DNA of 64,000 bases. Origin: Armatimonadota bacterium. GTDB taxonomy: Bacteria; Armatimonadota; DTGP01; JAKQQT01. This document shows, piece by piece, positions 12,312 through 41,720 of the stretch (position 1 is its first letter; every line of letters begins with the position of its first letter). The DNA is taken from assembly GCA_036504095.1 (NCBI GenBank), contig DASXVS010000032.1, positions 18,690 through 82,689 of the forward strand, written 5' to 3'. Position numbers and translations under genes: made by a program. The notes below the pieces were generated by a model. That model was given only the letters and a program-made list of their open reading frames with translations, did not search any database and was not told the origin of the DNA.

Positions 12312-13034
12312 CTACTCCGGGAGGTTCGCCCCGGGGTCGGTATTGTTCGAGATGACGCCCAGCGGGTCGTGCTTGTTTCCGCAGTATGCCACAGGCCAGT
12401 AGCCGTGGGAGTCCACATTGGGGAAACGGTATGCGAAGGGCCCGCTATCCGTTTTGGACCAGGCGACGTGTCCATCGGTGTAGGCGAAGTTCTTTCCCTC
12501 GCCATGCGGGTACGTTTTCAGATTGTCGTCCTCCGCCCACATTTGTGAGAAAAACTCGGCGGTGGAGTCGTTCCAGTCGAAAACGAGTTGTGCGCCCTTC
12601 TCGAACAAGAGGACAGTGTCCGCCGGGCGCTTGAGTTCGGTAACGGCGAGGCCGGACACATTGCGCGGAAAGGCATACCCCCGGATCGTTCCGCCTATCG
12701 GAATCTGCAGCCGTGCCGAGTTCGCGGGGCAGTCGAACGCTTTCACGCTCTTCACCTGGGCGAAAATGGCAGCGTCCCAGGTGGTTTCGGAATCCTGAAA
12801 CCACCACCTGGGAAGGTGCGAGTCGTTGTCATCGGCATACGCGGTCATCGCATCGGTTAGCTGGTGCAGATTGGAGACACACGTCGTGGCGTACGCCCTT
12901 CGCTTCACAAGCGCAAAGACCGGGAACAGGATGGCGGCCAGAACGGCGATAATGGCGATGACCACCAGCAGTTCCAGCAGCGTGAAGCCCGGCCCGGCCA
13001 GTCGGCTCTTGCGGCAGTAGTAGTCCAACCTCAT
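12312..13034 (-). CDS. Prepilin-type N-terminal cleavage/methylation domain protein with a DUF1559-like C-terminal region.
   Basis: [28 protein letters not shown] is the class-III signal (G|FTLLE). [11 protein letters not shown]... and the [11 protein letters not shown] tail are typical of the DUF1559 family abundant in Planctomycetota. Confidence 0.8.
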
Positions 13035-13184
13035 CTTGCTTCCTCGTTAGTTATCGCGGGTCGGTCACTCGCCCGCGGAATGTCCGGCTCAACCATGTCT
13101 ACCATGGATGAATCCGCATCCATCAGGTGTATCAATATCACTTATGCGAGACTCTGCAGCCGGCGCATCTGTTCCACATGAGCC

Positions 13185-15437
13185 TCATGGCAGCGAGTCC
13201 AAACCGTGCACCGCGCGCAGAACGCGCAAGGCGTCAAGGATGCTGATGCTGCCATCTCCATACCCGGAAGGAGACGACGAAGGCTTGGGCGCCATATCTC
13301 CGGCCGCGATCATCAGTCCGTTCGCCGGTGTAAGACCCGCGGCGGCTGCCAGGAGCGCCGCGACATCGTGAATGGTGACGGCGCCGTCACCGTCCACGTC
13401 GCCCGGCAGGTAAACCGTTACGCTGCGGGACGCCTGAGCCGTGTTTCCGGCCTTATCCACGGCGGTCAGCCGAAGGGTATACACGCCCGGCGACAGCAGG
13501 GACGTGTTCCACGCGCCAAGCGAACCGCTGGAGACCGGCGAGGACAGCGTGGAAATCGTCGTGTAACTTGAAGGACTCGCTCCGGCCCCCGATTCCAGCG
13601 TGGCGTGATCGAAATGCGCGTCAGAGACCGTCCCGGTCACTGCGACGTTCCCCATCACGAAGGCGCCGACCGCGGGCGCAGCAATATTGACTGTGGGAGG
13701 CGTGTTATCGATCACCAGCGCGCTCGATGCGCCGGTGCTGGTGAGGCCAACGCCGTTGGTTGCCCTCACGGCAACGTAGTAGCTGCCCTCGGCAAGCCCG
13801 GCCGTGGACAGCGAGGTGGACGTTGCCGTCCCCATCGCCGTGAACGCTTTCACGTCTGTCGCGCCGGACGTTGTGCCAACCCCGTATTCATACCCGCTTA
13901 TCCCGGACTCCGGGTCGGTGGATGACCACGAGATGGTGACGGACGACGCATTGTTCGCGTAGCCCGCGGAGAGCGTTACGATCGGCGTTGTCGGCGGAGT
14001 TGTGTCAGGACCGCCGGAGGCGTCGGCTATCCGCTGCGCATAGACCTGTCCGGCGCTGATATCGTGCCAATCTTCCCAAGCTACGATCGCTCCGCCGGCC
14101 CCGTCGGTCACCACACAAGGAGACTGTTCGTAGTACACCGATGCGGCTACCGGAGAGCCGTTGTCAGGCCACAACATTCCGCCTGTGCCGGTGAAATGCT
14201 GCACGTAGACGTCGGGGCTGTTCGTCCGGCTGTCCTGCCAGCCGGTAATGACCCCGGCGGCCCCATCGGACGCCGCCGACGGCGCTGTCTGGTCACCAAT
14301 CGCATTGCAAATGGGCTTTCCGGTCCAGGACACGGCGCCCGCTGAGGACACCTTCGCGCCCAACACATCTACACCGTTGCCGGCGGCCAGGTATTCCAGT
14401 TCGGCGCTGCCGTCGCCGTTCGGGATCAGTATCGGTTCGTACTCGTCGAACGTTTCTGTCGCCACGCCGAGGCCGTTCGCCCCCCATTGAGGGGCCAGCG
14501 AAGCGTTCATTCGCTGGGCATAAACGTCGGCGTTCGTTGTCCCGTTGCGGTAGTCGTACCACGCGAAAAGGTATCCGCCCTGTCCATCCGGCTTCAGGTC
14601 GTTAAGCACCTGGTCGCCGGCCGCGTTGCACACAATCACGTGGGAACCGGCAGACCCCGTGGCCGACACCTCGGCCGCTTTCACGTCGGCCACGTTGGTG
14701 GTCCCGTTATCGGTCCAGCCGACGATGGCGCCGCCGCCAGCCTGGCTGACGATCAGAGGGCCGAAGTGTACTCCGGCCGCTTTCATCACGGCCACGCCCT
14801 CCGGCGTCCAGCTCATCGAGCCGTCGGCAAGGACGCGCTGAGCGTAGATGTCCTCTTCGGTGATCGGCCCCAGGGAAGACCGGAAATCCTCCCAGGCGAC
14901 GATGGCGCCGTGCGCCCCGTCGGTGCAGATGACCGGGTGTTGCTGGATGTTGAGCGCAGAACAGACCGGCACGCCGTTCGCTATCCACTGAGGGCTGCCG
15001 TCCGACAGAATGCGCTGGGCGTAGATATTGGTGTCTGTGGCCCCCGCCCGGGAATCCGCCCACGCGACGATGATCCCGCCCGCGCCGTCACTCGCCGCGG
15101 TCGGACTGTCCTGTTCGCCATCGGCTGCGCACACTGCCACGCCGGACGCGCCCCACAACGGATTGCCGTTTTTGTCCAGATGCTGCGCCCTGATGTCGCC
15201 GCCCGTCCAACCTATGCTCGGAGTATAGTGCGCATACTCCGTCCACACCAGGAACACACCGCTCGCCCCGTCCGGTAGTGCCTTGATGCCGCCCTGGTAG
15301 AGCCCGGGAGATGGCGCGGCAATGACGCCGCCGGCCGTCCACAGGGATTGGAAGTCAGCGAGTGCGCCGGATGCCAACCCGGCCAGCAGAGAGGCGGCGG
15401 CCAATCCCTGCAACAAACTCGAAATCGTCGCCTTCAT
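13185..15437 (-). CDS. Secreted repeat protein: signal peptide, ~8 tandem ~48-aa repeats (propeller-like), FN3/Ig-like modules, C-terminal dockerin-like domain.
   Basis: The repeat unit G[VA].VC.A...Q..P....DG.GGAIVAW.D.R......DIYAQR[IV] recurs about 8 times. The FN3-like segment is TTPPTTPIVTLS...ISWSSTDPESGISGYEY. The C-terminus GDVDGDGAVTIHDVAALL...GYGDGSISILDALRVLRAVHGL is dockerin-like. Confidence 0.6.
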   Translation of the reverse strand: MKATISSLLQGLAAASLLAGLASGALADFQSLWTAGGVIAAPSPGLYQGGIKALPDGASGVFLVWTEYAHYTPSIGWTGGDIRAQHLDKNGNPLWGASGVAVCAADGEQDSPTAASDGAGGIIVAWADSRAGATDTNIYAQRILSDGSPQWIANGVPVCSALNIQQHPVICTDGAHGAIVAWEDFRSSLGPITEEDIYAQRVLADGSMSWTPEGVAVMKAAGVHFGPLIVSQAGGGAIVGWTDNGTTNVADVKAAEVSATGSAGSHVIVCNAAGDQVLNDLKPDGQGGYLFAWYDYRNGTTNADVYAQRMNASLAPQWGANGLGVATETFDEYEPILIPNGDGSAELEYLAAGNGVDVLGAKVSSAGAVSWTGKPICNAIGDQTAPSAASDGAAGVITGWQDSRTNSPDVYVQHFTGTGGMLWPDNGSPVAASVYYEQSPCVVTDGAGGAIVAWEDWHDISAGQVYAQRIADASGGPDTTPPTTPIVTLSAGYANNASSVTISWSSTDPESGISGYEYGVGTTSGATDVKAFTAMGTATSTSLSTAGLAEGSYYVAVRATNGVGLTSTGASSALVIDNTPPTVNIAAPAVGAFVMGNVAVTGTVSDAHFDHATLESGAGASPSSYTTISTLSSPVSSGSLGAWNTSLLSPGVYTLRLTAVDKAGNTAQASRSVTVYLPGDVDGDGAVTIHDVAALLAAAAGLTPANGLMIAAGDMAPKPSSSPSGYGDGSISILDALRVLRAVHGLDSLP

Positions 15438-16692: not shown

Positions 16693-19239
16693 TCAGCCGG
16701 CGTTTCCCGCGGCGGCGCTCTCCGCCGGAACGGGATCCCCGCCGTAGCGAAGGGGCACCCAACCCATTTCGTGGGCGGCCTGGTCCTCCGCGTAGGCGAT
16801 GAGGCGCCGGTAAAGCCGCGCCTGGCCCCACGCCATCAACACGAAGATACCCAGTATGCCGAGATTCACTCCAAGCGCGGCGGCCGGGTCGTCGATGTCG
16901 AAGGTGGTGACGGCAAGGATGGGGCCCAGCAGCAGCCAGAACCATGGAGTGAGCGCCAGGGTAACCCGGGTGCGCAGCACCGTCTGTTCGTGAACTGCGG
17001 TGTCTACATAGGCGGTGACAAACGCGAGGCGGCTGACCTTGAGGTCCCATCGTTCCCACCCGTCACCCGATGACGCGTCCAGATACATCTGCTGAAGATG
17101 GTAGGCGACCTTGTAGAGAAACGCGGGACGGTCGATCCAGGAAGCCCAATACCCATCCGACGGCGTGGCGGCTTTCTTGCGCCGTGCCTGCGTACGGAAC
17201 CGGGTGCCCTTCAGCCGGCCGATGCTTCGGTAGACCGGCTGCAGCAGATGGAGCCGGAAAACGAGCCACCACTGATATGCCTTTTCCCGGTTGCCCCCGC
17301 GCTCGCGGCGGGCGCCGTCGGAGGCGGCCTGGGCTCCCACAAAAATCGTTCCTGCGAGGCCGCACACCGCCACCGAGGCAAACAACAACGCGACGTACGG
17401 AACCACCATGAAGACGCTCGCCGCCAACGCCGCGGCTGCAAGCACAACGGCATACCATTCGGGGGTCAACGCCAGCCCGGCCCAGTTGGTCCAGTGCGGA
17501 TAATAGACTGACTGGAACATCGCCGCGCCGAATTCGCCGTAATGAACGCGCCGGCCCACTTTGAGGCGATGGAGCGGACCGTCGTAAAGGCTTCCCAGCC
17601 ATTTGATGCCGCCAAGCGCGTTAAAGCGATCGGGGTGATTCTCGTGGAGCAATGCCTCGGCGAAGCCATAACCCCTTTGCTGGCCCAGGTATCGCTTCAC
17701 GTTGGGCCGGCGATGGTGCCACACCATGGCGCCATGGTTAAAACCGATACGATAACCGGCGCTTAATACGCGCCAGCACATGTCGACGTCGTCGCCGGCC
17801 GTACGGTAAATGGTGTTGAAGCCGCCCAGAGACCGCAGCACGTCCGTCTTGAACGCCATGTTGCATCCGGGTACGTGCTCCGCTTCCTCATCGTCCATGA
17901 GGACATGGGTTGCGATGCCGGGGCAGCGGTCCACCGCACGCGCCACGGCATTGTCGTTCTCAGGCAGCAGGTTGGGGCCTCCCACCGCGCTCCAATCCCC
18001 CTCGGTGAAACTGGCGGCGAGATAGAAGAGCCAGTGCGGAGGCAGCACGCAGTCGGCATCGGTGTAGGCCACAATCTCGCCCGTCGCGGCGTCCATTCCC
18101 GCATTGCGCGCGAAGCTCAGGCCGCCGCGGCCAGGCTGCAGTAGCCGGATAGGCTCCGCGTAGGTTCCCGCGATCGATGCCGTCTGGTCTGTGGAGCCGT
18201 CGTCGATCACGAGCACCTCATAGTCCGGGTATTCCACGCGAGCGAATGAATCCAGGCACTCCGCGATCGTATCCGACGCATTGTAAGCGGCGATGACAAC
18301 GGAGATGCGGGGGAGGCGCGGCAGCATCGCATACAGCGGCCCGGTGTACAACTGCTGTACCGTCGCGTACGCCGCCTTCGGCCGCCGGGCCTCGTCCACG
18401 ATCCCGAATCTCCAGTCTTCGACCCTTCGATCGCCCACCACCCACTCGTCGGTCCAGCCGAACAGCGTTATGCCGCAAAGGCCCTTCTGGAACACGGCCT
18501 TCACCAGCCATTCGAGGGTCTCCGCCTGTTTCTCCTCGCTGGAGTGCATCGAGTCCAGGCCCGATTCGCCCAGGAGAATGGGTTTGTCACCGGCGAGCGA
18601 CTGCAGTCGCGCCAGGTAACTGCGAAACTCCGGCTCGCGTTCCAGGTAGACGTTGAAGGTGATGACGTCGAGAAAGGAGAGATCCAGGTATTCAGCGGGC
18701 GGATAATTGGCGAAGGTGACGAGCGAGCCGGGATCCTCACGATGCACGAGGTCGGTCAATTCGCGAAGGAAGCCTTCTATAACCGTCTGCCCGTACCAGC
18801 GGATGATGTCCGGCGGCACTTCGTTGCCAATGCAGTACATCAGCACGGCGGGGTGATTACGGCACGCGCGGACCGCTGCGGTCACCTCGGCCTTTGCGGC
18901 GCTCCTGTCCGTCGCGCTGTCGTACATGAGTCGGCGCGCTTCCCAGAACGTGCCGACGATAACGTGCAGCCCGTGCTCGCGCGCGGCGTCCAGCAAATAG
19001 CGGGGGGGGACAGTGTAGGTGCGGATCGTGTTGACGCCGGCTTCGCGCATCAACCGGAAGTCCAGGTGAACCGTGGCCTCATCCGGGAAACGGTACCCGT
19101 CCTCCGATTCCGCGAAAGTGCCGTAGGTGACGCCCTTCACGAGGAACAGCCGGCCGTTGACCCGCAGGAACTTGCCCCACACTTCCGGTCGTGTGTCCTG
19201 GTTCGCGCGCCTGGTTGTTTCGTGAGATGGCAGCATCAC
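16693..19239 (-). CDS. Fused clan GH-A TIM-barrel glycoside hydrolase domain + family 2 glycosyltransferase + multi-pass membrane domain (polysaccharide synthase-like).
   Basis: The N-terminus (GVNTIRTY... CIGNEV ... LGESGLDS) has GH-A acid/base and nucleophile motifs. The middle (ISVVIAAYNASDTI...VLVIDDGSTD...YTDADCV...QQRGYG) is a GT2 module with D,D,D and Q..R motifs. The C-terminus has several TM helices. Confidence 0.7.
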   Translation of the reverse strand: MMLPSHETTRRANQDTRPEVWGKFLRVNGRLFLVKGVTYGTFAESEDGYRFPDEATVHLDFRLMREAGVNTIRTYTVPPRYLLDAAREHGLHVIVGTFWEARRLMYDSATDRSAAKAEVTAAVRACRNHPAVLMYCIGNEVPPDIIRWYGQTVIEGFLRELTDLVHREDPGSLVTFANYPPAEYLDLSFLDVITFNVYLEREPEFRSYLARLQSLAGDKPILLGESGLDSMHSSEEKQAETLEWLVKAVFQKGLCGITLFGWTDEWVVGDRRVEDWRFGIVDEARRPKAAYATVQQLYTGPLYAMLPRLPRISVVIAAYNASDTIAECLDSFARVEYPDYEVLVIDDGSTDQTASIAGTYAEPIRLLQPGRGGLSFARNAGMDAATGEIVAYTDADCVLPPHWLFYLAASFTEGDWSAVGGPNLLPENDNAVARAVDRCPGIATHVLMDDEEAEHVPGCNMAFKTDVLRSLGGFNTIYRTAGDDVDMCWRVLSAGYRIGFNHGAMVWHHRRPNVKRYLGQQRGYGFAEALLHENHPDRFNALGGIKWLGSLYDGPLHRLKVGRRVHYGEFGAAMFQSVYYPHWTNWAGLALTPEWYAVVLAAAALAASVFMVVPYVALLFASVAVCGLAGTIFVGAQAASDGARRERGGNREKAYQWWLVFRLHLLQPVYRSIGRLKGTRFRTQARRKKAATPSDGYWASWIDRPAFLYKVAYHLQQMYLDASSGDGWERWDLKVSRLAFVTAYVDTAVHEQTVLRTRVTLALTPWFWLLLGPILAVTTFDIDDPAAALGVNLGILGIFVLMAWGQARLYRRLIAYAEDQAAHEMGWVPLRYGGDPVPAESAAAGNAG

Positions 19240-21419: not shown

Positions 21420-24400
21420 CTAGAAGCTTGCTTCCATCCTGCCCTGAGCCTCCGGCCCGGCCGATTTCTCCAGCCGGCTCAGACGTTCTTCGAGACTCCC
21501 GTTCTGTGACTTCAGCGCCTCGATTTGCTTCTGCTGGTCCTTGATTGCCTCCACAAGGAGGGCATTCACGCGGCTGTAGTCCATTCCGGACACGCTGCCG
21601 TCACCGTTGGAGGCGACGACTTCCGGCAGGACCTTGCCCACCTCCTCGGCGATGAAGCCGATGTCGTGCGCGCCACCCTGCGCCGGCTTCCAGTCATAGT
21701 AAACACCCCGAAGCTTCTCCACCTTGGAAAGGGCATTGTCGATGGTGCGGACGTTGGTCTTCCATTTGGCTGATGAGTACGTGATCCAGCCGTTCGCCTG
21801 GCCCTTGCCGCTCTCATCGGAGATGTTCGGTAACTGAACACGGTAGTTCGGCCACGCGACGCCGAAGCCGGTGAAGCCGTTCCCGGGACGGACCACAACA
21901 CTGGGATCGCTTGCGGTCGTGGATGTGGTCTGGTACGTTCGGAACCAGCAGTCCCAGCCAGCATTGTTACTCGACCGGCCTCCCGGGTAGGTGCTGGTGA
22001 CGTTGGCCCTCCATCGGCCGCTGATATCCGGGTTGACGGAGATGGTATACACGTGTCCGGCCGCCATGGGGACCAGAGTGGCGAGCGGGTAGTATCTCCA
22101 CTCCACGTCGCCCGCGCCGCCGATTGTCTGATCGCTCAGAATGGTCCCAACTGTGCCTTCGCCATCGTAGATGCGCAGGCTGGCGGTCCAATTCGACGAT
22201 CCGTCGTTCGCGCCGAAGAAGATGGCAACTCCCGCGAGGTTGCCCGTGCTCCCGGTCGGCACCGCTGCGGTGAAGGACTGCCAAATGGCGCCGGTACCAT
22301 AGATGTAGCTCGGCAGGAGTGCGTTGTTCTCCTGGTCGAGGGTTACTGGAGTGTGGTAGATGGCGAGCGGGTTAACGACGCCGTCACCTTCGATCTGAAG
22401 GCGAGCCGTCGGATTCGTCAGCCCGATCCCGACGTTTCCATTGCCCTTGAAGCGGACGTTCTCCGTCAGCGCGCTGCTTTGTCCGTAGCCGAACGCGATG
22501 TCCGTGCCGGCGGTCTGGGAGTATATCTGCAGCAGGCTGCCCTGGATACCCAAGCCGTAGTGGTCGCCCGTGTTGCCGTACAGGCTGATCTTGTCGCCCA
22601 GGGTGTTCGGGAAGTTCAGCGGAAATCCTGGCGAACTGGTACCGAGGCCGATGCTGCCGCTCGGGAGAACGGTGAGGCGGCCCGCGTTTGCCGTCTGATC
22701 GACGAAGTTCCAGGAACCGTTGCTGGCGGTGTAGATGCCGTAGTTGCGGCCTGTCGCTGCCGTGTTGGTGAACTGCATGCCGGATCCCCATCCCGCTCCG
22801 GACGATGTGAGCTTCAACGCCAGGTTGTTGGTGGCGGCCTTGTCGATCTCCAGTCCGGCATCGGGAGTCGTAGTGCCGATGCCGATGTTCGTCAAGAGGG
22901 CTGTGGCCGCTCCGGCGGTTACCTTGGCGAGCGATGCTGCGTCTGAAGCGAGTTGTGCGCTGCCCACCGCATTGGCGGCAAGGTCCGCAGCCGCGACCGT
23001 CCCGTCCGCTATCTTGCCTGTGGTCACCGCTGAATCAGCGATCCGGTCGGTGACAACCTTGCCGGCCCCGATGGTGGGGTTAGGATATGTTCCTGTCAGG
23101 TCGCCACCCGCGGTGGCTCCAATGCCAACGGCGGCCGTCGTCTGCGTTTTTCCGTCCGGGAACTTCACGCCACCGATTGTGGCCTCGACCACCCCAGCCA
23201 CTGTTAGTTTGGACGACGGCGTCATCGTGCCGATGCCCACGTTGCCGGTATCGTCACGCACCAGCAGGGAGTGGCTCGGTGCCACACCGGCCGCCACGGT
23301 TACATAGGTTATGAAGTAGAAGTCAAAGTCGGAGGCAACGCCGTCATGATACGGTGTGCCGCGCGGATACGAGTTATCAGAAGACTTATTCGGTAGGACA
23401 AGCAGGCTGTCGATGGTAGTGACGTTGGAGATGTTCCACGTACAAACCTGGCCCAGTGTAACTGCGGGCGGGGTAGTGATCGGAAAGCTGAGATGGCCAA
23501 GGCTGTTTCCGGAGATGCGTTGTGAGGTGAGGAGGGTCCCACCCAGGCCCTCGCCATCATAGATCGAGAGCGTTGCCGACCAGGCTGACCAATCAGTGGT
23601 TCCCAGATAGAGTTCCAACCTTGTGAGTGTCCCTGACATCCCTACCGCGAAGGACTGGCCAAGTGACGCGAAGTTGGATGGAATCAGGTAGTTGCCGCTG
23701 ACCGTCTTCTGGGCCTGATCCTCATATTCCCCGGCCGCCACGTTCGGGTGCGTCACGACGTCCAGCGGGTCCTTCGGATTTGGAGAGGCGATGCCGACGG
23801 CTGACGGCCTCACCGTCATCGTATCCACGCTGTTGGCAGCGAGCCTCAGGATGCCGTCTCCTCCCCAGTTGAGGCCGGTGTCGGTATCGCCGACGGCCAG
23901 CGAAATGGCCGGGGCGGAAACACCAATGCCGACTTTACCGGTCACGGCGGCCATTGCGCCACCGGAAACCTTGAGCAGGGAGGTTTCATCGGTAGCAAGG
24001 TCCGGATTCGGATACGTGCCGGTGAGGTCGCCGCCCGCTGCGCCACTTGGCGGCAGGGTGGTAGGGATAGTCGGCGCGCCGGTCACCTTGCTCCAGGCCA
24101 TCCCAACGATCTTGGCGTCCGTCACCGCTCCGTCGGCGATCTTCGCCGTTGTTACGGCTCCGTCCGCGATGGTAAGGGCGTATGGGACGCTCGCCAGAGG
24201 CAGCCTGGGCGTCATCTCCGGATCGGCACCCATCGAGATACCTACCCAAAGCGGCTGGTTCAGTGGCACCGGAAGCGGGGTGATGGCGCCAAGCGTGGTT
24301 GAGACTATGCCATTGGAGGGAGCCAGTGTCTGTGTCTCGCTCCAGAGCGCGGTGCCGCCGGTCGTAACAGCGTACAGCGAGAAGGTGAAGGGTGCGGGCG

Positions 24401-24534
24401 TCGCCATCGGCTTGTCGGCAGAGGTCTTCACCTGTGCCTGGAAAGGAATCAGGCGCGGCACGTCGGCGCGCGCAAGGGACACGATACCGGGCAGGAGCGC
24501 AAATCCCGCCGCAAGCATGGGACGAAGTTTCATA
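21420..24534 (-). CDS. Secreted tail-fibre-like protein with a C-terminal peptidase S74 / chaperone-of-endosialidase intramolecular chaperone domain.
   Basis: I chose the start at MKLRPMLAAGFALLPGIVSLARA (signal) and rejected the 93-aa upstream extension. Repeated motifs N[VI]GIGT.TP.A.L.V. The C-terminus DNALSKVEKLRGVYYDWK...IGFIAEEVGKVLPEVV...MDYSRVNALLVEAIKDQQKQIEALK matches the S74 autoproteolytic chaperone domain of phage tail spikes. Confidence 0.75.
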
Positions 24535-25081
24535 GAGAACCTCCAGATCGCAATCAGGCGCGAGGAGGTCGTCCCTTTCGATGCCCAGAGTCGCTGGAGG
24601 ACGGCATTCGCGAGGACTGAGACAGATTCTAGCCTGCCCGGCTGCTGGAGGCAAGGTTGGCGGGTCAGTCCCTCGTCAGAGGTCAAAGCGGATGTGAGTC
24701 GATGGGAATTACGCCCTTGGGAAAACTCTCTGAAGGCAACACAAAAATCGTGGCAACAAAGCGCTATAATCGGTGTTCCGACATAAGAGTAACCATTCTG
24801 GCTTATCATTTACGCGTCTCCGAACCCCAGTTTGTGGCCGGTGCACTCCTCTTTCGTCCTGAACCGCTGCCCTCATTCAGCCGGCCGTCGGTCCACTGCG
24901 CGTGCGCCGCCGCGTTCAACGCCAGGCGTACCCGGCGATTGCGGTACCCGTGCGATTGCGGGATCAGTTTCGTCGCGTGACAGTGGGGCAACCAGAGGAC
25001 TTCAGTTCGCGCGCTGGAAGCGCTCAGCGGGGCATTCCCCTTTGAGCAGCCTGGTTCGCGACTGGTATCTATTCCAAGAAA

Positions 25082-28057
25082 GTGAGCTTCCGCATGAAGC
25101 ACTCATACTTTGTGGCGGGTAAGGCCATGGCGGGCCTCATCGTCTCGATGGCCATCGCAACGCCAGGATTTTGCGACGGGTTCCTCAACTTCACCTCCAA
25201 TCATTCCGTAAACGCCTACCCGAACGTTACGAACTCAACGCGGACCAACGGAACGGCATCCTCCAACGTGTGGGCGATCGCCTACATTGAGCCTCCGAAC
25301 GATTTCAACAACGGCTACCAACTCTGGCTCAACTACATCACCAGCGGCGCAAGCGGCGCCTTTACGAGCTTCGACTCCAGGCAGGTGCTGGAAGGCTCCG
25401 ATGCCAGCAATGTAGGCAACCCGGACAAGGCGCCGGCGATCCCCATCGCTCAGGGTGGCAGGATCGTCACGGACACCAACAGCGCGGCCACCCCGCCGAT
25501 CACGTCGCAGCGGCAGACGCTCACGAAGAGCATATACGTCCTTTGGATGGAGAAGAACGGCACCGCATCGCAACTGGTGTGTGCGCTCGTGAACGACGGG
25601 GTGCAGGAGCACCAGGCCGGACCTAACCAGACCAATATCTCTGTCGTCCATACGCTCGTCACGGGCCTCGTGCAGGGAGCGACAACCTTTGGAGCGGCGG
25701 CCCTCCCGGACGGCACGGGTTTCGTCACCATCACCGTCAAGCCGGCCAAGTCGATCTTTACGGTGACGTACTTCAAGTGGAACTCCAGCGTGGACACGTA
25801 TTCGCTGACACAGGCTTACCAGCAGGACTTCAGCCTCCCCGCCGGTCTGACGGCAGCGTACAACGGGAACATCGTCTGCGCGGTTACGCGAAACTACGAC
25901 CGCATGGCGCGCTGGTATCCCTACCGGCTCACGCTGGCTCTGGATCCGTGCGTCACAGGGAATTACGTCCAGACGAGAGATTATCGCCTGAACGACAAAA
26001 TGGTGGCGACATTCTATCCGCGGTATTTCCTCACCGTTGTGCCGAAGGACAACCAATGGCACTCGTTGGGCAATGCGGTGAACAACGGCAACAACGCGAC
26101 GAACCTCATCCCATGCGTAGACGGACGGCTCTTGGCCGCGGTCGGCGAGGCCTCGGGAATGACCCTCTACGCGCGCACCGGGTTCGACACCGGCACACAG
26201 CAGGCGACCTGGCAGGGCGCGGGGCAGGGTGAACTCCTGTTCCCCTACACGGACAGCCTCCCGGCGTTCATATATCGGCCGATGTTTCCCGGCGTCCCGC
26301 CGGCGGAAAACACCGACGTGAAGTTTCCGGTTGTGCGGGACATGATCGTCAAGAACGACGTCGGCAAGTCCGGGGTGGACCCGACGTATCTGGTGGCATA
26401 CGAGAAGAGCACCTCGGAACAAGCGCACCGCCTGCCGCTGTCTCCAACGGCAGGCTCGGTTGCGACCGTGCTTGGCATCGTGGATGGCCCGCCGCCCATA
26501 CCCAACGAGAACTTCCTCGTTGCATCGCCCAGCGATCCCCGGCCGTGGGATTTCGCAAAATCCGACGTTGCCTTCAACTGGACGCGCACCGCGTCCGTCG
26601 CGACCGATTCCGAGTATACGTCCTCGCTGAGCGTGGGTGTGGAGGCCACGGCGGGCGCCGAAGTTGGGGGTTTCTCCGCCGATGTAGAGCTCAGCGGTGA
26701 AGTGGCGTGGACGCACGGCGACTCGTTCTCCCGGAAGACGGGCGACACCGTCGAGCAGTTCGCCAAGTTCGCCAATTCGACAACCACGGACGCCAACGGG
26801 CGTGTCATCGTTACCCCCCTTGGGTCGCTCTATTGCGCCTACCAGACCTTCCGGGGGTACTCATACGAGTTCCTGGATGCCGGAAGCAACCAGATTCCCG
26901 GCGCGCAGGTGTACACGCAGGTATGGCCCGACGGTCCGCCCACCATTCAGGTGCTGGACTACTGGATGAACCCCAACGGGCGCCAGCCCGGACACCTGGA
27001 GAGCTACATCGTGGACGCGGCGTCCCGCAATGCGCTCGTCGCGCAAAACACGGTGAACTTCTCCGGGGCGACCACGACCAGCGATCCGTCCGGCGGCGGT
27101 GGAAACCACCTGTATTTCGGGTACACCGACTCGAACACTGTTGGAGACACGTGGGACCATTTCGTATCGGACGAATCGAAGACATCGGAAGGCATCAAAA
27201 TCGGTGAGGCGATCAAGGTGTCGGCGTCTTACGACTGGGACGTGGTCAAGGTAGGCGGGAGCGTCAGCGTAGCCCACGATTCGGAGACCACCCGATCCCG
27301 GACGACGTCGCAGGATACGAGCACCGGAATCGTTTCGGAGTGCGATGTAACCACAGACCGCGGCGTTCCCAACACCTACTACCACGAGTCATTCGAGACC
27401 TTTCTCCTGAAGGATGACAATCACTACCTTCAGGAACTCCTGAGCGACGATCCGAACGGCATCGGGCTGGTGACGCCAACATGGCCGCCGATCGGCTCCA
27501 CGATGCGCCAGGACAACGAAGCGATCAAGGCGTCCCTGATCCGCACATCCGCGCCGTGGAAGGTGACCTACATCCTCTCGGACACGCCGCTGAAGACGCA
27601 CAGCCTCCTCATTGGCACGGCAGCGCCCGCAGCCAGCGGCCTCGATGCGCCGCTGGTGGCGAAACTTCAGAAGTACGGTGTCACGACCACCGGCCTGGCC
27701 GATCTGCTCATCCAGAAGAAGGAGCAGATGATCGGCAGCGCCCCGCGGCTTATCACCAACCGGCCGTGGTACGAAGTGACCCGCGACGTGGAAGCGAAGG
27801 CCCAACGCCTGAACAGAAACATCCGTCGGTATTTCCCGGACTCCAGAGCCCTGAGTGCGGCTCTGAAGAGCCTGACCGTTGCCGATATCGCAGCGCTCCG
27901 ACGGTACCAGGCAGCATCCGACGCGCGGGACCGGCAGGCATTCCTCAGCGCACACCCTGTCCGCTACCCGGCGTACACTCCGCCGAGCATTATGGCGAAG
28001 CCTGCTATCCGCAACACCGGAGCCAGGTTTACGGAAATACCGCCCGCCGGGCAGTGA
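25082..28057 (+). CDS. Large secreted protein of unknown function (991 aa).
   Basis: Signal-like N-terminus MKHSYFVAGKAMAGLIVSMAIATP. No recognisable catalytic motif. Two Ser/Thr-rich stretches alternate hydrophobic and polar residues (SVGVEATAGAEVGGFSADVELSGEVAWT; IKIGEAIKVSASYDWDVVKVGGSVSVAH). Confidence 0.5.
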   Translation: MSFRMKHSYFVAGKAMAGLIVSMAIATPGFCDGFLNFTSNHSVNAYPNVTNSTRTNGTASSNVWAIAYIEPPNDFNNGYQLWLNYITSGASGAFTSFDSRQVLEGSDASNVGNPDKAPAIPIAQGGRIVTDTNSAATPPITSQRQTLTKSIYVLWMEKNGTASQLVCALVNDGVQEHQAGPNQTNISVVHTLVTGLVQGATTFGAAALPDGTGFVTITVKPAKSIFTVTYFKWNSSVDTYSLTQAYQQDFSLPAGLTAAYNGNIVCAVTRNYDRMARWYPYRLTLALDPCVTGNYVQTRDYRLNDKMVATFYPRYFLTVVPKDNQWHSLGNAVNNGNNATNLIPCVDGRLLAAVGEASGMTLYARTGFDTGTQQATWQGAGQGELLFPYTDSLPAFIYRPMFPGVPPAENTDVKFPVVRDMIVKNDVGKSGVDPTYLVAYEKSTSEQAHRLPLSPTAGSVATVLGIVDGPPPIPNENFLVASPSDPRPWDFAKSDVAFNWTRTASVATDSEYTSSLSVGVEATAGAEVGGFSADVELSGEVAWTHGDSFSRKTGDTVEQFAKFANSTTTDANGRVIVTPLGSLYCAYQTFRGYSYEFLDAGSNQIPGAQVYTQVWPDGPPTIQVLDYWMNPNGRQPGHLESYIVDAASRNALVAQNTVNFSGATTTSDPSGGGGNHLYFGYTDSNTVGDTWDHFVSDESKTSEGIKIGEAIKVSASYDWDVVKVGGSVSVAHDSETTRSRTTSQDTSTGIVSECDVTTDRGVPNTYYHESFETFLLKDDNHYLQELLSDDPNGIGLVTPTWPPIGSTMRQDNEAIKASLIRTSAPWKVTYILSDTPLKTHSLLIGTAAPAASGLDAPLVAKLQKYGVTTTGLADLLIQKKEQMIGSAPRLITNRPWYEVTRDVEAKAQRLNRNIRRYFPDSRALSAALKSLTVADIAALRRYQAASDARDRQAFLSAHPVRYPAYTPPSIMAKPAIRNTGARFTEIPPAGQ

Positions 28058-28092: not shown

Positions 28093-31000
28093 GTGAAACG
28101 AACTCATAAGAAACTAGGATATCTGGCAGCGTTGGCGGCGGCGTTGACGCTCGGTGGGGTCAGCCGTGCCGCTATTCGCGACATCCCCGGCAGCTACGCC
28201 AGCATCACGGATGCGGTGAATGCCGCCACGCCGGGCGACACGATCCGGTTTTCATCGCCGGGCACATTCCCCTCGATGACCGGAGGCATCACCAAGAACC
28301 TGGCCTTCGCCGGGCCCACGAACGGCCACGTGACTATCACGCCGCCGCTTGCCGGTGGCCGCGTATTCTCGATCGGCGCCGGCGTGACGGTGTCGTTTGA
28401 CCACGTGACCATCGACGGGGGCGTGCTCACGTCAGGCACCGACCGCGGCGCAGGCATATTGAACGCCGGAAACACGACCCTCACAAACTGCACCGTCAGC
28501 CACAACAGCGCGGCGGCATCGGGGGGCGCCATCTACAACAGCGGCGGCGCCGCGCTTTCGATGACGAACTGCACCATCGCCGGCAATACCGTCACCGGTG
28601 GCGCCACCATCGGTGGCGCGGCTATCAGCAACGGCGGGACCGTTGTGCTCGAAAACTGCACGGTCGCGTACAATACCAGCAACGGCGTAGCGGGAGGCCT
28701 GGACAATCGGAACAGCAATTCGTTCACGATCCAGAACACGCTGGTGGCCGGCAACACGGGAGGGAGCAACCCGGACGCCGCGGGGCCTTTCGCATCGCAG
28801 GACTACAACCTGGTGGGCAACGGCACAGGCGTAACGTTCACCGGCGCGACATCGCACAATCAGGTCGGGACAAGCGCGGCCCCCATCGATCCCCGGCTGG
28901 GCCCGCTTCAAGACAACGGTGGCGCCACCTTCACCGTCGCGCTCCTGCCCGGCAGTCCGGCCATCGACGCCATTCCCGGCGCGGCGCCCGCCAATTTCCC
29001 GGCAATTGACCAGAGGGATTCCGCTCGCCCCGTGGATGGTGGCGACGGCGACAACATACCCGAGGGTGATATCGGCGCCTATGAGGCGGATGCGCCCGTT
29101 GCATTCTTCGTTGCCACGACCGGCAGCGACTCCAACACGGGCGTGACGGCGAACCAGCCGCTGCGCAACATCGTGACGGCGATCAACCGGTCCGCTCTAT
29201 CGGGCGTTATCACCATCGCGCCGGGCACGTACACCGAAAACCTTGTGCTCCAAAAATCCGTGGCGCTGCAGGGAACGCCCGGCGCTGCATCCACCACCAT
29301 CATCCAGAGCATCAACGACGCAACGCGAAGGACCACCCTGGTGGTCTTCCCTGTAACGACGGTCTACCTGTCCGACCTCACGATCACCAACGGCCTCGCT
29401 CCAAGTACGGGCATCGGGTCGGGCGGCGGGGTGTTCAACGAGGGAACTCTGACTCTGCATCGGTGCACCGTCACCGGGAATACCGCCGCATACTCCGGCG
29501 GCGGCATCGTCAACTACCTCAATGGCACGATGTACCTCTCGGACTCGACGGTGAGCGGCAATTTCGCCGACCAGGCGGCCGGAATCGAAAACGACGGTCT
29601 CATGGTAATGAGCGGCTGCACCGTGTCCGGAAACAATGCCAACACCGGAGCGGGCGGCGGCATCGGCAACACCGATATCCTCACGATGACCAACTGCACG
29701 CTGAGCGGCAACTCAGCGGGCCAGGGCGGCGGTATCTACGCTGCCACAGGGTCAATCTACCTGCGCAACGTCACCATCAGCGGCAACACCGCCACGGACG
29801 GGGGCGGCATCGCCAATGTATCATCAACCTCCTTCCCGGACTCCGGACTGCTGAGTGATAACAGCGTCATTGCCGCCAACACGGCAACCACAGGGCCGGA
29901 TATCTCGGGAGAGTTCGTGAGCAACCTCGGCTACAATTTCATCGGCAGCCCCAAGGACGCGGTCATCACGTCCAAGCTGGTCGACCAGATCGGGACGGCG
30001 GCGATACCCCTCAAGCCCTATCTCGGGACCCTGGCGGACAATGGAGGGCCGACGCTCACAATCAACCCCCTGGTCGGCAGTCCGTTGATCGATACCGGCC
30101 CGTCGGGAGTTGCCGGCCCGGCGACGTTCCCGGATACGGATCAGAGAGGCGTGCCTCGGCCCATCGGTGCGAAGAGCGACATCGGGGCCGTTGAATATCA
30201 GCCGAGATTCATCGTCACCCGCACGGCCGATGACGCGTCCCCCGGATCGCTCCGCTGGGCGATCGCTCAGGCGAATGCGACTAACAACGCCGTGATCTCG
30301 TTCGCCATCGCGCCGATCGGCAGCGCCGGCGGGGTGAAGACGATTGTGCTCAGCGCAACATATGGCGGGCTGCCGGTGATCACCAGCAAGATATTCATCG
30401 ACGGATGGAGCCAGGGCGGCGTAACGTATTCGGGCACGCCGCTGATCGAGATCAACGGGCAGAACATTCCGTCATCGTTCGGCCTCAACGTTCAGGGTGC
30501 CGGCTGCGTGATCCGGGGCCTGGCGATCAACCGGATGCTGAACGTTTCCGGCAATGCCTTCGGAATCGGCCTGTTTAACTCAGGCACGAACGCCTGGATC
30601 TATGGCTGCGCTCTGGGTACCGATCCGAGCGGGACCATCGCGCTCGGCAACGGCCAGGGCGGAATCTGGGCCGGCGCGGGCGGCGCGTTGATAGGCTCCA
30701 ATATGGATGGCGTCAACGACGCCGCCGAAGCCAACATCATCTCGGGCAACGCGGTCGAGGGAATCCTGGTCACTTCGTCCGGCAACGTGATCGCCGGAAA
30801 TTCCATTGGCACGGACATCACCGGCGCATCCCAACTTGGAAATGGGGTGGGGCTGGCGTATGGCGGCGTGCGGGTGGAGAGCGGCACGGGCAATCGGATC
30901 ACGCAGAACTCAATCGCCTTCAACTACGGCCTCGGAATCGACCTCGGTGGCGACGGTGTCACCTTGAACGACCTCGGCGACGATGACGGAGGCGCCAACA

Positions 31001-31491
31001 CCCTGCAGAACTTCCCCGTGATCACCGGCGCAAGCACCGTACTCGGCGCCACCACCATCACGGGAACTCTCAACAGCACTCCGGGCAGCACATTCACCGT
31101 TGAGCTGTTCCGCAGCGCTTCGAAAGATCCGTCCGGATACGGAGAAGGCCAGCACTATATCGCGACCACCAGTGTGACAACCGACACGTCCGGAAACGGT
31201 TCCTTCTCGGTGTCCGTGCCGGCGCTGGCGACCGGGCAGTGGGTCACAGGGACCGCGACGAACTCCGGCGCCAACACGTCGGAATTCAGCCTGGCCTTTG
31301 CCGTCCCCGGAACGTCGTTCACGCTTGTGGATGCGGTACGGGCTCTGCAACTGGCGGGTGGTCTGACCGCCTACGGCCCTTCAGACAGCCGCCTCAATAC
31401 GGAGACCGGCGGCGCTTCGGCAGGCAAAGTGGATCTGCTTGATGCCAGCCGCATCGTCCGCAAACTGACAGGGCTCGAGCCCAACCCGTAA
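28093..31491 (+). CDS. Secreted right-handed parallel beta-helix repeat protein of the choice-of-anchor-Q type, with a C-terminal dockerin-like tag.
   Basis: Signal peptide. Many NxTxxGNxAxxGGAI-type beta-helix rungs. The DQRG motifs (IDQRDSARPVDGG...DIGAYE and PDTDQRGVPRPIG...DIGAVEY) are the hallmark of choice-of-anchor Q domains. The C-terminus FTLVDAVRALQLAGGL...GKVDLLDASRIVRKLTGLEPNP is dockerin-like. Confidence 0.7.
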   Translation: MKRTHKKLGYLAALAAALTLGGVSRAAIRDIPGSYASITDAVNAATPGDTIRFSSPGTFPSMTGGITKNLAFAGPTNGHVTITPPLAGGRVFSIGAGVTVSFDHVTIDGGVLTSGTDRGAGILNAGNTTLTNCTVSHNSAAASGGAIYNSGGAALSMTNCTIAGNTVTGGATIGGAAISNGGTVVLENCTVAYNTSNGVAGGLDNRNSNSFTIQNTLVAGNTGGSNPDAAGPFASQDYNLVGNGTGVTFTGATSHNQVGTSAAPIDPRLGPLQDNGGATFTVALLPGSPAIDAIPGAAPANFPAIDQRDSARPVDGGDGDNIPEGDIGAYEADAPVAFFVATTGSDSNTGVTANQPLRNIVTAINRSALSGVITIAPGTYTENLVLQKSVALQGTPGAASTTIIQSINDATRRTTLVVFPVTTVYLSDLTITNGLAPSTGIGSGGGVFNEGTLTLHRCTVTGNTAAYSGGGIVNYLNGTMYLSDSTVSGNFADQAAGIENDGLMVMSGCTVSGNNANTGAGGGIGNTDILTMTNCTLSGNSAGQGGGIYAATGSIYLRNVTISGNTATDGGGIANVSSTSFPDSGLLSDNSVIAANTATTGPDISGEFVSNLGYNFIGSPKDAVITSKLVDQIGTAAIPLKPYLGTLADNGGPTLTINPLVGSPLIDTGPSGVAGPATFPDTDQRGVPRPIGAKSDIGAVEYQPRFIVTRTADDASPGSLRWAIAQANATNNAVISFAIAPIGSAGGVKTIVLSATYGGLPVITSKIFIDGWSQGGVTYSGTPLIEINGQNIPSSFGLNVQGAGCVIRGLAINRMLNVSGNAFGIGLFNSGTNAWIYGCALGTDPSGTIALGNGQGGIWAGAGGALIGSNMDGVNDAAEANIISGNAVEGILVTSSGNVIAGNSIGTDITGASQLGNGVGLAYGGVRVESGTGNRITQNSIAFNYGLGIDLGGDGVTLNDLGDDDGGANTLQNFPVITGASTVLGATTITGTLNSTPGSTFTVELFRSASKDPSGYGEGQHYIATTSVTTDTSGNGSFSVSVPALATGQWVTGTATNSGANTSEFSLAFAVPGTSFTLVDAVRALQLAGGLTAYGPSDSRLNTETGGASAGKVDLLDASRIVRKLTGLEPNP

Positions 31492-39770: not shown

Positions 39771-41720
39771 TCATCGCCCCGGCAGACTGTCGATGGCCGC
39801 GCTGGTCGGCCGGCCATAGGCTTCCGGGGTCAGATACCGTCCGCGGTCGCCCGCGGGTTTATCCACCTCTGGAACGGTCCGGTGCCCCTGCGCCCAGGCG
39901 TCTTTCCGGATTCCGGTGACTTGCCAGGAGACCTCCATCCCGGGTATTCCCCCCGCGATACGGAAAGTATTCCCCTGAACTCTGCTGGCGATGAAGAGGT
40001 TGGGCGCCGGGGCGCCGATGGCGGTCAATTGGTACCGGAAGTCCATATTGAGCGCCTCGAAATACCCCGGAAGGTGAACATCGGCCTGGCCTCCAGCATC
40101 CAGGACAGCGATACCGTCGTACAGGTTCTTCATGTCCGGACTCTCGACAGACGTGTGGTAAAGGTACTTGTTGGCGGGATCCAGCGGGTGGTCGATCCTG
40201 AAGTTCTTCGTGAGGGCGTTAAGGGTACCGTTGATCTGAACTTCCCCTTCAAACCGCCCGGCGAGTCCGCCGTTGACCCCTTGTCCGGCGACTCCCACCC
40301 CGGTTTTCGAACCGCTGGGTGCGACGAGATAGCCGCCGAGGAAGCCGAAACTGCCGCCCTGACCCGATACTCCGGCCACCGCGGGCCCATTGGTGCTGAA
40401 CCCGTACACACCATCCCCATTGACGCTCACACCAGAGACGCCCACGGCGCTGTTGCCGGGGATGCCGCTCGTATCCGCCGACGCGTCGTTGTAACCGAAG
40501 ACGCCGTAGTTGTGGCCATTTGTGCCGGGACCGTCGTGCCCGTAGCCGTAGACGCCGTACTGACCGGCGCCGGAGACCCCGACGCCGTAGGGCGTGAGTG
40601 AGTTCGGCGGTCCGGGGCTGATGACCGTACCAAGCCAGCCCCAGCTCTGCGTCAACGCGTTGTAACCCGTTACACCTGTGCCGGACATCTCATTGCGACC
40701 GAAAACTCCACTGTCCGCCGAGCTGGACGTCTGGCCGAAGACCCCGTTGTGAACGCCGTGTCCCCACACCCCCGCGTACCCCTGCGTGCTTTCGCCAATC
40801 ACTCCATACGCGCCCTGCTCCGACAAACCGTAGACGCCCGTACCGGCGCCCGAGTCGCCCCAGACGCCGACGTGCGCGCCGCTGCCCCAGACGCCGTCAC
40901 CCGCTGAATTGTCGTTCTGGCCATAGATAGCCGGTAATCCGCCGGCGTGCCCCACGCCGTTTACCGCCTCGTAGCTTGCGCTTTCGCCATACACCCCGGC
41001 GCTGCTCGTGCTGATCCCGTAGACGCCGTAACTCTTGGAACTGCTGCCGTAGAGGCCGATGCCGTTGGTGCTGCTGCCCTGGGTTCCGACACCGTCCGTA
41101 CTCGTGCCGAACACGCCTTTGTTGCTCGTGCTGCCTCCCCGGATGCCGTTGCCGGTGGTCGAATACCCGGCAACCGCATCGTAGTTGATGCTCAATCCGA
41201 GGATCCCGCTGTTGTTGTCCGACGAGCCTTCAATGGCCGCCCCGGTCCCGGAGTTGCGCACGTACATCGCGTTGTCCGGAGACGCAACGCTGGCCGTGCC
41301 CGAAAGCGGCAGGCTCAGGGTGGCCGAGGGTGTGTTCAGTGCGTACGGGACGCTCGCCAGAGAGTATCGCGGCGCCATTGCAGACGCTTCCCCGGCAATC
41401 TGAACCTCCACGAAATACGGCTTGTCGAACGCCAGCGATCCGAACGGGGTGGGAACCCCAAGCTGCGTCGTAAAGAGGCCGTGGCTGCCGGTCAACGTCA
41501 CCGGCTTGGCTGCCTCGGTCCACAGCGGGCTGCCGCCACTGGCTACGTCATACAGCCGGAATGTGATGTTGTACGTACCGGCAGGCTTTGGCTGGCCCGC
41601 CGCGTTGACAAGAATCCCCTCAAACGAGATGGCCTGCGGGATTGCCGCGCTAATGGGCGCCGCCAGCCAGGCGGCAAACGACACTGCGCCTAACGCCGCA
41701 GATAATCCGTGCTTCAACAC
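39771..41720 (-). CDS. Secreted tail-fibre-like protein, paralog of 21420..24534 in its N-terminal domain. It has a Gly/Tyr-rich short-repeat stalk and a distinct C-terminal domain.
   Basis: Putative GTG start before the signal LKHGLSAALGAVSFAAWLAAPISA. The N-terminal ~120 aa align with the other tail-fibre-like protein (I.F.G.L...G.P..G.Y...F.LY....GG..LW.E ... PR..LASVPYAL). The stalk has ~30 degenerate G[VI][YWF]G-type repeats. The C-terminus FRIDHPLDPANKYLYHTSVESPDMKNLYDG... has unknown function. Confidence 0.6.
   Translation of the reverse strand: MLKHGLSAALGAVSFAAWLAAPISAAIPQAISFEGILVNAAGQPKPAGTYNITFRLYDVASGGSPLWTEAAKPVTLTGSHGLFTTQLGVPTPFGSLAFDKPYFVEVQIAGEASAMAPRYSLASVPYALNTPSATLSLPLSGTASVASPDNAMYVRNSGTGAAIEGSSDNNSGILGLSINYDAVAGYSTTGNGIRGGSTSNKGVFGTSTDGVGTQGSSTNGIGLYGSSSKSYGVYGISTSSAGVYGESASYEAVNGVGHAGGLPAIYGQNDNSAGDGVWGSGAHVGVWGDSGAGTGVYGLSEQGAYGVIGESTQGYAGVWGHGVHNGVFGQTSSSADSGVFGRNEMSGTGVTGYNALTQSWGWLGTVISPGPPNSLTPYGVGVSGAGQYGVYGYGHDGPGTNGHNYGVFGYNDASADTSGIPGNSAVGVSGVSVNGDGVYGFSTNGPAVAGVSGQGGSFGFLGGYLVAPSGSKTGVGVAGQGVNGGLAGRFEGEVQINGTLNALTKNFRIDHPLDPANKYLYHTSVESPDMKNLYDGIAVLDAGGQADVHLPGYFEALNMDFRYQLTAIGAPAPNLFIASRVQGNTFRIAGGIPGMEVSWQVTGIRKDAWAQGHRTVPEVDKPAGDRGRYLTPEAYGRPTSAAIDSLPGR

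Follow-up and report, generated by a model that had tools for sequence, protein, structure and literature searches.

Probable mosaic adhesive trimer-type surface fibres with different tips, encoded by two genes in the chromosome of an uncultured Armatimonadota bacterium

A 64,000-nucleotide stretch of contig DASXVS010000032.1 from an uncultured Armatimonadota bacterium (the window) carries a gene whose product ends in a self-cleaving chaperone domain of the kind found in phage tail spikes, and this raises the question of whether the gene belongs to a phage particle or encodes a surface fibre of the cell itself. This gene (gene A, 21420..24533, minus strand, 1037 residues) is accompanied by a second (gene B, 39771..41720, minus strand, 649 residues) whose product starts in a similar way and ends differently. 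We consider it quite probable that A and B are two chromosomally encoded surface fibres of the mosaic adhesive trimer (MAT) type. MATs were defined by Caulton et al. (2024) as proteins of ~1000 residues that form a trimeric fibre, ending in a Peptidase_S74 domain in 13 members (with the motif SDxxxK) and in other tips in 8 'NS74' members (PMC10769870). Self-cleavage has been demonstrated for Bd3182, and a location on the surface was seen by microscopy, but characterised MATs come only from the predator Bdellovibrio, where they have a role in prey recognition; the published list of MATs outside Bdellovibrio (Supplementary Table S3) holds predator-associated taxa only and no Armatimonadota (PMC10769870).

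The N-terminal parts of the two products are related to one another and to those of the Bdellovibrio fibres. The first-pass annotation, made from the letters of the window alone, had described the N-terminal ~120 residues of A and B as homologous, and they align with 37% identity over 128 residues (E=7e-15), with no other significant similarity between A and B. A profile built from 21 sequences (alignment A1: gene A, gene B and their relatives, signal peptide included) matches gene A with E=3.7e-38 and, when scanned over all six frames of the window, finds genes A and B only. Although no Pfam family matched any of the 21 members, 19 of them match NCBIfam NF053851 ('Bdello_MAT_N, mosaic adhesive trimer family chimeric fiber protein') at E<=0.01, with a best value of 2.9e-11, and gene B itself does so at E=5.6e-5 (23 bits). 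Because NF053851 is a model of the Bdellovibrio subfamily, A and B are distant relatives and not members of that subfamily. A 1072-residue protein of B. bacteriovorus strain s4 (locus L015) scores 233.6 bits on NF053851, and its N-terminus aligns with the A1 profile over the whole domain (hhalign, probability 97.5%, E=6.2e-12, 108 columns; hmmsearch, E=7e-12). The s4 protein has extra residues inside the aligned region, and the domain spans ~100 residues in A and B compared to ~160 positions in the Bdellovibrio model. Searches of a 5.8-billion-protein database with fragments of Bd2133 taken from a PDB alignment returned no Bdellovibrio proteins, whereas a search of genome contigs with the same fragment was successful.

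The N-terminal domain defines a very large family. A HMMER search with the A1 profile against 1.84 billion representatives (clusters at 50% identity) gives 3,166 matches at E<=1e-30, 71,296 at E<=1e-10 and 104,318 at E<=1e-3, the loosest of these counts being possibly inflated since the profile includes the signal peptide. Among the 150 best matches listed the domain lies almost always at residues ~1-130, and the relatives named are from Armatimonadota, Chlorobi/Ignavibacteria, Bacteroidota, Phycisphaerae, Verrucomicrobia, Anaerolineae and Gammaproteobacteria. It is present in 196 of the 240 best relatives of A and B, and these 196 end in an S74 domain (38), in a tip of the gene B type (94) or in something else (64); none of the 240 has both an S74 domain and a gene B-type tip. 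A and B thus share with MATs a signal peptide directly followed by a conserved beta-rich N-terminal domain, and an S74 or alternative independently folding tip that is exchanged among paralogues. The genome has at least three such genes, namely A, B and that for P0125, which has the same locus-tag prefix. There is no Pfam model of the N-terminal domain, and gene B and most of its relatives are labelled 'hypothetical'. We note that a Verrucomicrobia metagenome-assembled genome (MAG) contains two N-terminal-domain fibre genes in tandem (L010, 122..5795, plus strand; frames of 807 and 926 residues), which suggests local duplication with tip diversification in other phyla.

Gene A lies within a longer open frame (21420..24809, minus strand), and the ATG at 24533 is supported as its start by the spacing of a GGAGG ribosome-binding site 6 nt before it (24540-24544), by the Sec signal peptide that follows (MKLRPMLAAGFALLPGIVSLARA), and by identity of the resulting protein to HEY3412722.1 (NCBI, 1037 residues), labelled 'tail fiber domain-containing protein [Armatimonadota bacterium]'. 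An exact look-up finds no record of the 1129-residue product of the long frame, while the 1037-residue form is on record. The start at 24534 given earlier thus designates the same gene but is off by one base.

The C-terminal part of gene A is an S74 domain, as the first-pass annotation had recognised. Pfam PF13884 (Peptidase_S74) matches residues 920-973 over profile positions 1-57 of 58 (E=2.2e-14; 53.9 bits, above the gathering cut-off of 22), and PHROG tail-fibre families match residues ~903-1020 with E-values down to 6.5e-25. The Pfam match lies upstream of a long C-terminal helix (residues ~986-1024 in the AlphaFold2 (AF2) model), and as it covers the catalytic core ahead of this helix the concern that the similarity might be confined to a coiled coil can be set aside. 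Where the domain starts, the Ser/Lys dyad is present with a spacing of five residues, and the +1 Asp of the consensus is replaced by Ser. Alignment A3, of 8 relatives of gene A residues 720-1037 that include two S74 subtypes, shows S920, S921 and K925 to be invariant, and its profile aligns S920-S921-x3-K925 on the S-D-x3-K of phage S16 gp37 (6F45, E=3.7e-11). A weak phmmer match (E=0.017) puts K925 on K592 of MyRF (7DC3), which by register places S920 at MyRF S587; MyRF is cleaved between P586 and S587, and its S587/K592 are equivalent to S911/K916 of the endosialidase endoNF (PMC8326128). By analogy, the scissile bond of gene A is predicted to lie between Tyr919 and Ser920, with release of 118 residues. 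Close relatives with the same jelly-roll domain as gene A carry, in alignment A3, one of two S74 subtypes (SSAKWKTN...DIGFIAEE or SSRRYKENITPL...EIGYIAE), the latter with an extra stretch of ~12 residues ahead of the cleavage site, which suggests that fibres exchange even their chaperone domain.

Between its two ends gene A is a mosaic of shaft segments and inserted domains (Table 1). The first shaft segment contains IADGAVTxAKI repeats, a GGDLTGTYPNP motif at residue 167, capping-loop-like VGIGxxxPxxxL motifs at residues 201 and 246, and a GDTDTGLNWGGDG motif that is common to T-even gp37; residues 209-235 match the long tail fibre of phage S16 (6F45), which also has this GDTDTGLNWGGDG motif. 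The second has capping-loop motifs at residues 432, 550, 628 and 701 and another GGDLTGTYPNP at residue 476; its residues 420-475 match 8OND, the Bd2133 fibre (E=6.8e-10), and PHROG tail-fibre families match at residues 464-580, 489-563 and 616-719. In all, six [VI]G[IL]Gxx(x)PxxxL motifs occur along gene A, close to the published MAT capping-loop motif V-G-G/N-pi-x-x-P-x-x-x-L (PMC10769870) and as expected of a MAT shaft. The two beta-sandwich inserts are related to each other (36% identity over 94 residues, E=1e-10) in a targeted comparison of segments, although self-BLAST of the whole protein reveals no internal repeat. The AF2 model of insert 2 has predicted local distance difference test (pLDDT) values of 75-92 over most of its length and lower ones at both ends, and its Foldseek matches in the PDB (E=7e-5 to 5e-3) are a baseplate protein of phage phi812, PHR domains, CBM4 and CBM16. 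Pfam scans of isolated segments give weak, non-significant matches of DUF5907 to the first shaft segment and of DUF4082 to insert 1 (E=0.079). The segment ahead of the S74 domain is predicted to form the last turns of a triple beta-helix; its AF2 monomer model is of low confidence, and in the A3 profile it aligns with the Bdellovibrio MAT fibre-tip chains 8OJN (E=6.4e-4), which we take to be Bd3182, and 8OND (Bd2133).

Gene B is built on a different plan behind the shared N-terminal domain. Its product is 100% identical to HEY3412732.1 (P0121, 'hypothetical protein'), and translation starts at the GTG at 41720 or at the next codon, the NCBI model having 648 residues. The stalk is a Gly/aromatic microrepeat, as described earlier, with 25% Gly and ~20 repeats of ~10 residues (GV[YFW]GxSxxxx). 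No S74 domain is present in gene B, which indeed matches no Pfam family at all, and a PDB sequence search with gene B gave no match. Its C-terminal tip is predicted to be a beta-sandwich (AF2, pLDDT 82.7) without a structural match in the PDB at E<=1e-3. Searches against predicted structures (BFVD), however, match it to a minor tail protein of Arthrobacter phage Mufasa8 (E=5.9e-11) and a tail fibre-like protein of Prochlorococcus phage P-SSM2 (E=2.6e-7), and tblastn with the tip finds 8 phage records. The C-terminus of gene B had been called unrelated; it does differ from that of gene A, but these phage tail-protein matches make it a phage-shared module as well, one that some phage tail proteins carry at their C-terminus. 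In a 28-sequence alignment (A2) the tip has a mean column identity of 65%, with 20 columns invariant across phyla, among them D31, P33, D35, P36 and H43 of FKIDHPLDPxNKYLxH. For a presumed receptor-binding end this conservation is unusually high; instead of specificity that varies, it might point to a ligand that is itself conserved, to a metal site or to a part in folding.

Table 1. Features of genes A and B in the window (all on the minus strand)
Feature	Residues	Position	Strand	Basis or remark
Gene A signal peptide, MKLRPMLAAGFALLPGIVSLARA	1-23	24465..24533	-	Typical Sec; predicted cleavage after ARA; sequence read
Gene A N-terminal MAT-like domain, ends ...LASVPYALT	24-121	24171..24464	-	Presumed cell-surface anchor
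Gene A shaft segment 1	122-267	23733..24170	-	Motif positions, 6F45 match
Gene A beta-sandwich insert 1	~268-416	23286..23732	-	Likeness to insert 2
Gene A shaft segment 2, beta-helix-type repeats	417-722	22368..23285	-	8OND, PHROG, motifs
Gene A beta-sandwich insert 2, jelly-roll	~723-880	21894..22367	-	AF2 model, Foldseek
Gene A pre-S74 segment, GNGFTGFGVAWPNYRVQLPN...WITY	881-919	21777..21893	-	Profile alignment with MAT fibre tips
Gene A S74 chaperone/autoprotease domain and C-terminal helix	920-1037	21423..21776	-	PF13884
Gene A Ser920 codon	920	21774-21776	-	
Gene A Lys925 codon	925	21759-21761	-	
Gene A stop codon		21420-21422	-	
Gene B signal peptide, ...AWLAAPISA, cut before the next A	1-25	41646..41720	-	Sequence read
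Gene B N-terminal MAT-like domain	26-130	41331..41645	-	NF053851; family profile E=2.5e-40
Gene B Gly/Ser/aromatic stalk	131-500	40221..41330	-	Composition, autocorrelation, repeat listing
Gene B C-terminal tip, FRIDHPLDPANKYLYH...VSWQVTGIRKD	501-649	39774..40220	-	Alignment, AF2, BFVD, tblastn

The distribution of these parts between cells and phages is uneven. In tblastn searches of 50,697 phage genomes with two N-terminal domains (that of gene B and of a more consensus-like member) no match was found at E<=0.01, whereas the last 127 residues of gene A, used as a positive control, give matches of up to 48% identity in 903 phage records, most of which carry a tail-fibre annotation. With a cellular N-terminal domain joined to shafts and tips shared with phages, A and B are chimeras, and this points to a pool of receptor-binding modules shared between phages and the surface fibres of their hosts. 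Neither protein has an N-terminal part of the kind found in phage genomes, and neither gene lies within a phage structural gene module, as a virion component might be expected to. The proposal of the first-pass annotation that these are host-encoded fibres is upheld by their Sec signals, by the absence of the N-terminal domain from the phage genomes searched, and by a neighbourhood of metabolic and cell-envelope genes.

As read from their sequences, A and B each consist of a Sec signal peptide, a beta-rich N-terminal domain of ~100 residues, a long repetitive shaft and a tip that also occurs in phage tail fibres, and they are alternative heads on one attachment module; gene A fits the S74 subfamily of MATs and gene B the NS74 subfamily, both as distant relatives. 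A plausible scenario, in which trimerisation, self-cleavage, surface display and the ligand are inferred from Bdellovibrio MATs (Bd3182), endosialidase (endoNF), T5 pb1 and MyRF, is that the fibre protein would be exported via its Sec signal, with trimerisation and folding of the shaft nucleated at the C-terminus. The Ser920/Lys925 dyad would then cut between Tyr919 and Ser920 and free the 118-residue chaperone fragment, such that the mature gene A fibre would be residues 24-919, kept on the cell by the N-terminal domain. The two jelly-roll domains of each chain, which resemble carbohydrate-binding modules, would together with the exposed distal end attach to a ligand, most likely some glycan of another cell or of a substrate. 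Gene B would use the same anchor with its Gly-rich stalk of 10-residue repeats and a beta-sandwich tip that does not cleave.

Several observations weigh against identifying A and B as MAT-type fibres. The curated cut-off of NF053851 (60 bits) is reached by neither protein, with gene B at 23 bits and gene A alone giving no match; the motif of gene A is SSxxxK and not the consensus SDxxxK; the inserts resemble carbohydrate-binding modules weakly (E=7e-5 to 5e-3, with low TM-scores); and the AF2 monomer model of the S74 part has a pLDDT of only 30-50, which is nevertheless expected of a domain that folds as a trimer. To our knowledge the Armatimonadota are not predators, and MAT fibres have been characterised only in a predator. 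The altered motif has a further implication, in that gene A could be MAT-like with an S74 domain that serves only as a trimerisation chaperone, left uncleaved since SDxxxK became SSxxxK and retained as a distal cap. The +1 Asp is replaced by Ser not only in gene A but in all 8 aligned relatives. However, the Ser and Lys that mutagenesis has shown to be indispensable (PMC8326128) are both present and invariant, the aromatics Y615 and Y617 that flank the MyRF reaction centre have counterparts in the alignment in gene A Y946 and W948, and the fact that SS...K does not vary between two S74 subtypes speaks for selection at this position, so that an uncleaved fibre seems unlikely.

A relationship to phage particles is suggested by the strong similarity of the C-terminal ~120 residues and parts of the shaft of gene A to phage tail-fibre families, as well as by its NCBI name, and gene A might thus encode a tail fibre that works in a particle and that was left behind by, or domesticated from, a prophage, tailocin or contractile injection system. 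A Sec signal peptide is not readily accommodated by such an origin, and neither is an N-terminal domain that was not found in 50,697 phage genomes yet occurs in more than 70,000 protein clusters. Moreover, no baseplate, sheath, tube, capsid, terminase or integrase match occurs among ~30 open reading frames (ORFs) of the window, and a close relative, P0005, also lies among ordinary chromosomal genes; we regard a role in a particle as very improbable. The remaining alternative takes the Bdellovibrio parallel literally, with the fibres serving predation or epibiotic attack and the host being an unrecognised predator. Those MATs that have been characterised all function in recognising prey, and the published non-Bdellovibrio examples come from predator-associated taxa (PMC10769870), and the presence of at least three such genes in one genome would suit this lifestyle. 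But the N-terminal domain is found in more than 100,000 clusters (E<=1e-3) and in many phyla from which predators are not known (Bacteroidota, Verrucomicrobia, Phycisphaerae, Ignavibacteria, Anaerolineae), and the window has the abundance of glycoside hydrolase and sugar-related genes that is typical of saccharolytic organisms, which makes predation a decidedly poor prospect.

The closest parallels are the Bdellovibrio MATs, both those with S74 (Bd3182) and without (Bd2133, Bd1334). As in A and B, a signal peptide and a conserved beta-rich N-terminal domain are followed, in proteins of ~650-1000 residues, by a repetitive shaft, a beta-helix with VGIGxxxPxxxL capping loops in the case of gene A, where there are matches to 8OND and 8OJN, and by an S74 or unrelated beta-sandwich tip; paralogues have the same N-terminus with different tips, and the genes are scattered in the chromosome. 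They differ in that gene A has SSxxxK in place of SDxxxK and two jelly-roll inserts in its shaft, gene B has a stalk of Gly-rich 10-residue repeats and a tip that is not among the six solved MAT tips, and the host belongs to the Armatimonadota and is not known to be predatory. Phage S74 fibres and tailspikes (endosialidase K1F, T5 pb1, S16 gp37 6F45) share with gene A an S74 domain with Ser/Lys dyad followed by a helix, and the shaft motifs GDTDTGLxWGGDG and GGDLTGTYPNP, but where these have a virion-attachment domain, gene A has a Sec signal and an N-terminal domain for which no match was found among phage genomes. The ICA domain of MyRF and Dictyostelium MrfA is likewise a cellular, non-viral use of this self-cleaving trimerisation domain, although MyRF is a membrane-tethered transcription factor whose cleavage frees the N-terminal part, with no fibre or adhesin role. 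Trimeric autotransporter adhesins of the YadA type are, as proposed for A and B, trimeric, repetitive, Gly-rich surface fibres, and one JGI relative of gene B is so labelled; A and B, however, have no C-terminal membrane-anchor beta-barrel and no Pfam YadA matches, and their polarity is reversed, with the presumed anchor N-terminal and the variable head C-terminal. A trimeric autotransporter identity for gene B was rejected because of the missing C-terminal barrel anchor.

The genomic surroundings are those of a bacterial chromosome. The window falls within a metagenomic contig of 314 kb (JGI 3300035523) and within an NCBI Armatimonadota MAG. The first-pass annotation had seen no phage structural genes flanking either gene, and Pfam and PHROGs scans of ~30 neighbouring ORFs find none; a prophage or tailocin origin was rejected on these grounds. 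Gene A is surrounded by genes for an ATP-binding cassette (ABC) exporter, a GH2-like/GT2 fusion, a DegT aminotransferase, an Ig-domain protein, a secreted 991-residue protein and a beta-helix/choice-of-anchor Q protein, and gene B by DUF5996 and EgtB/EgtD genes. GH116, GH76, NorB, a porin and a P-type ATPase are encoded elsewhere in the window, and the porin gene supports the presence of an outer membrane. P0005 is in a different, equally ordinary neighbourhood, with no clearly matching neighbours relative to gene A save an unrelated-looking beta-helix protein, and these genes therefore appear to stand alone; the P0005 context provides no evidence for a conserved operon partner of gene A.

Among the neighbouring genes, that for the 991-residue protein (25082..28057, plus strand) is divergent from gene A and encodes a signal-peptide-like N-terminus, with no match in Pfam, NCBIfam or PHROGs; it also adjoins gene A on other assemblies that carry the sequence of A, which are probably of the same organism. 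Just downstream is a gene (28093..31491, plus strand) for an 1132-residue protein, probably another surface protein, in which right-handed beta-helix repeats are combined with a choice-of-anchor Q domain (NF041518, E=5e-37); a large beta-helix protein is also encoded near the gene A-like gene of P0005 (locus L003). The 848-residue fusion of a GH2-like TIM-barrel region and a family-2 glycosyltransferase (16693..19239, minus strand) stands in a run with the ABC exporter and DegT aminotransferase genes beside gene A, and this run may be an exopolysaccharide or glycan locus. Farther along (12312..15437, minus strand), a gene for a protein with a prepilin-type N-terminal methylation motif (12312..13034) adjoins one for a 750-residue bacterial Ig-like protein (13185..15437); a possible interplay of MAT fibres with type IV pili has been raised (PMC10769870). 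Adjoining gene B and divergent from it (41939..44238, plus strand) are an EgtB-like gene (DinB_2 and FGE-sulfatase domains) and then one for an EgtD-like histidine methyltransferase, which look like an ergothioneine biosynthesis pair. An unusual 819-residue fusion (50350..52809, plus strand) has an M36 fungalysin-type metallopeptidase region followed by PGA_cap (poly-gamma-glutamate capsule synthesis).

Part of this picture is already known, in that the fibre class was described in 2024 and gene A already has a generic name at NCBI. What is added to the published MAT work is modest, namely the very large size of the family, the want of a Pfam model for it, its N-terminal domain's apparent absence from phages, and its occurrence in a phylum without known predators. 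On balance, we lean towards the broader view that MAT-type fibres are no speciality of predators but rank among the largest classes of bacterial surface fibre to have gone unrecognised, with a cellular anchor and phage-exchanged shafts and tips across many phyla, and that A and B would be typical members serving adhesion to glycans or cells in a saccharolytic non-predator. The architecture of the Bdellovibrio prey-recognition fibres then exists outside predators, in a phylum not known for predation, and chromosomal genes annotated as 'tail fiber domain-containing protein' need not be prophage remnants. The N-terminal domain in turn provides a handle for finding the surface element or export route that holds such fibres on the cell.

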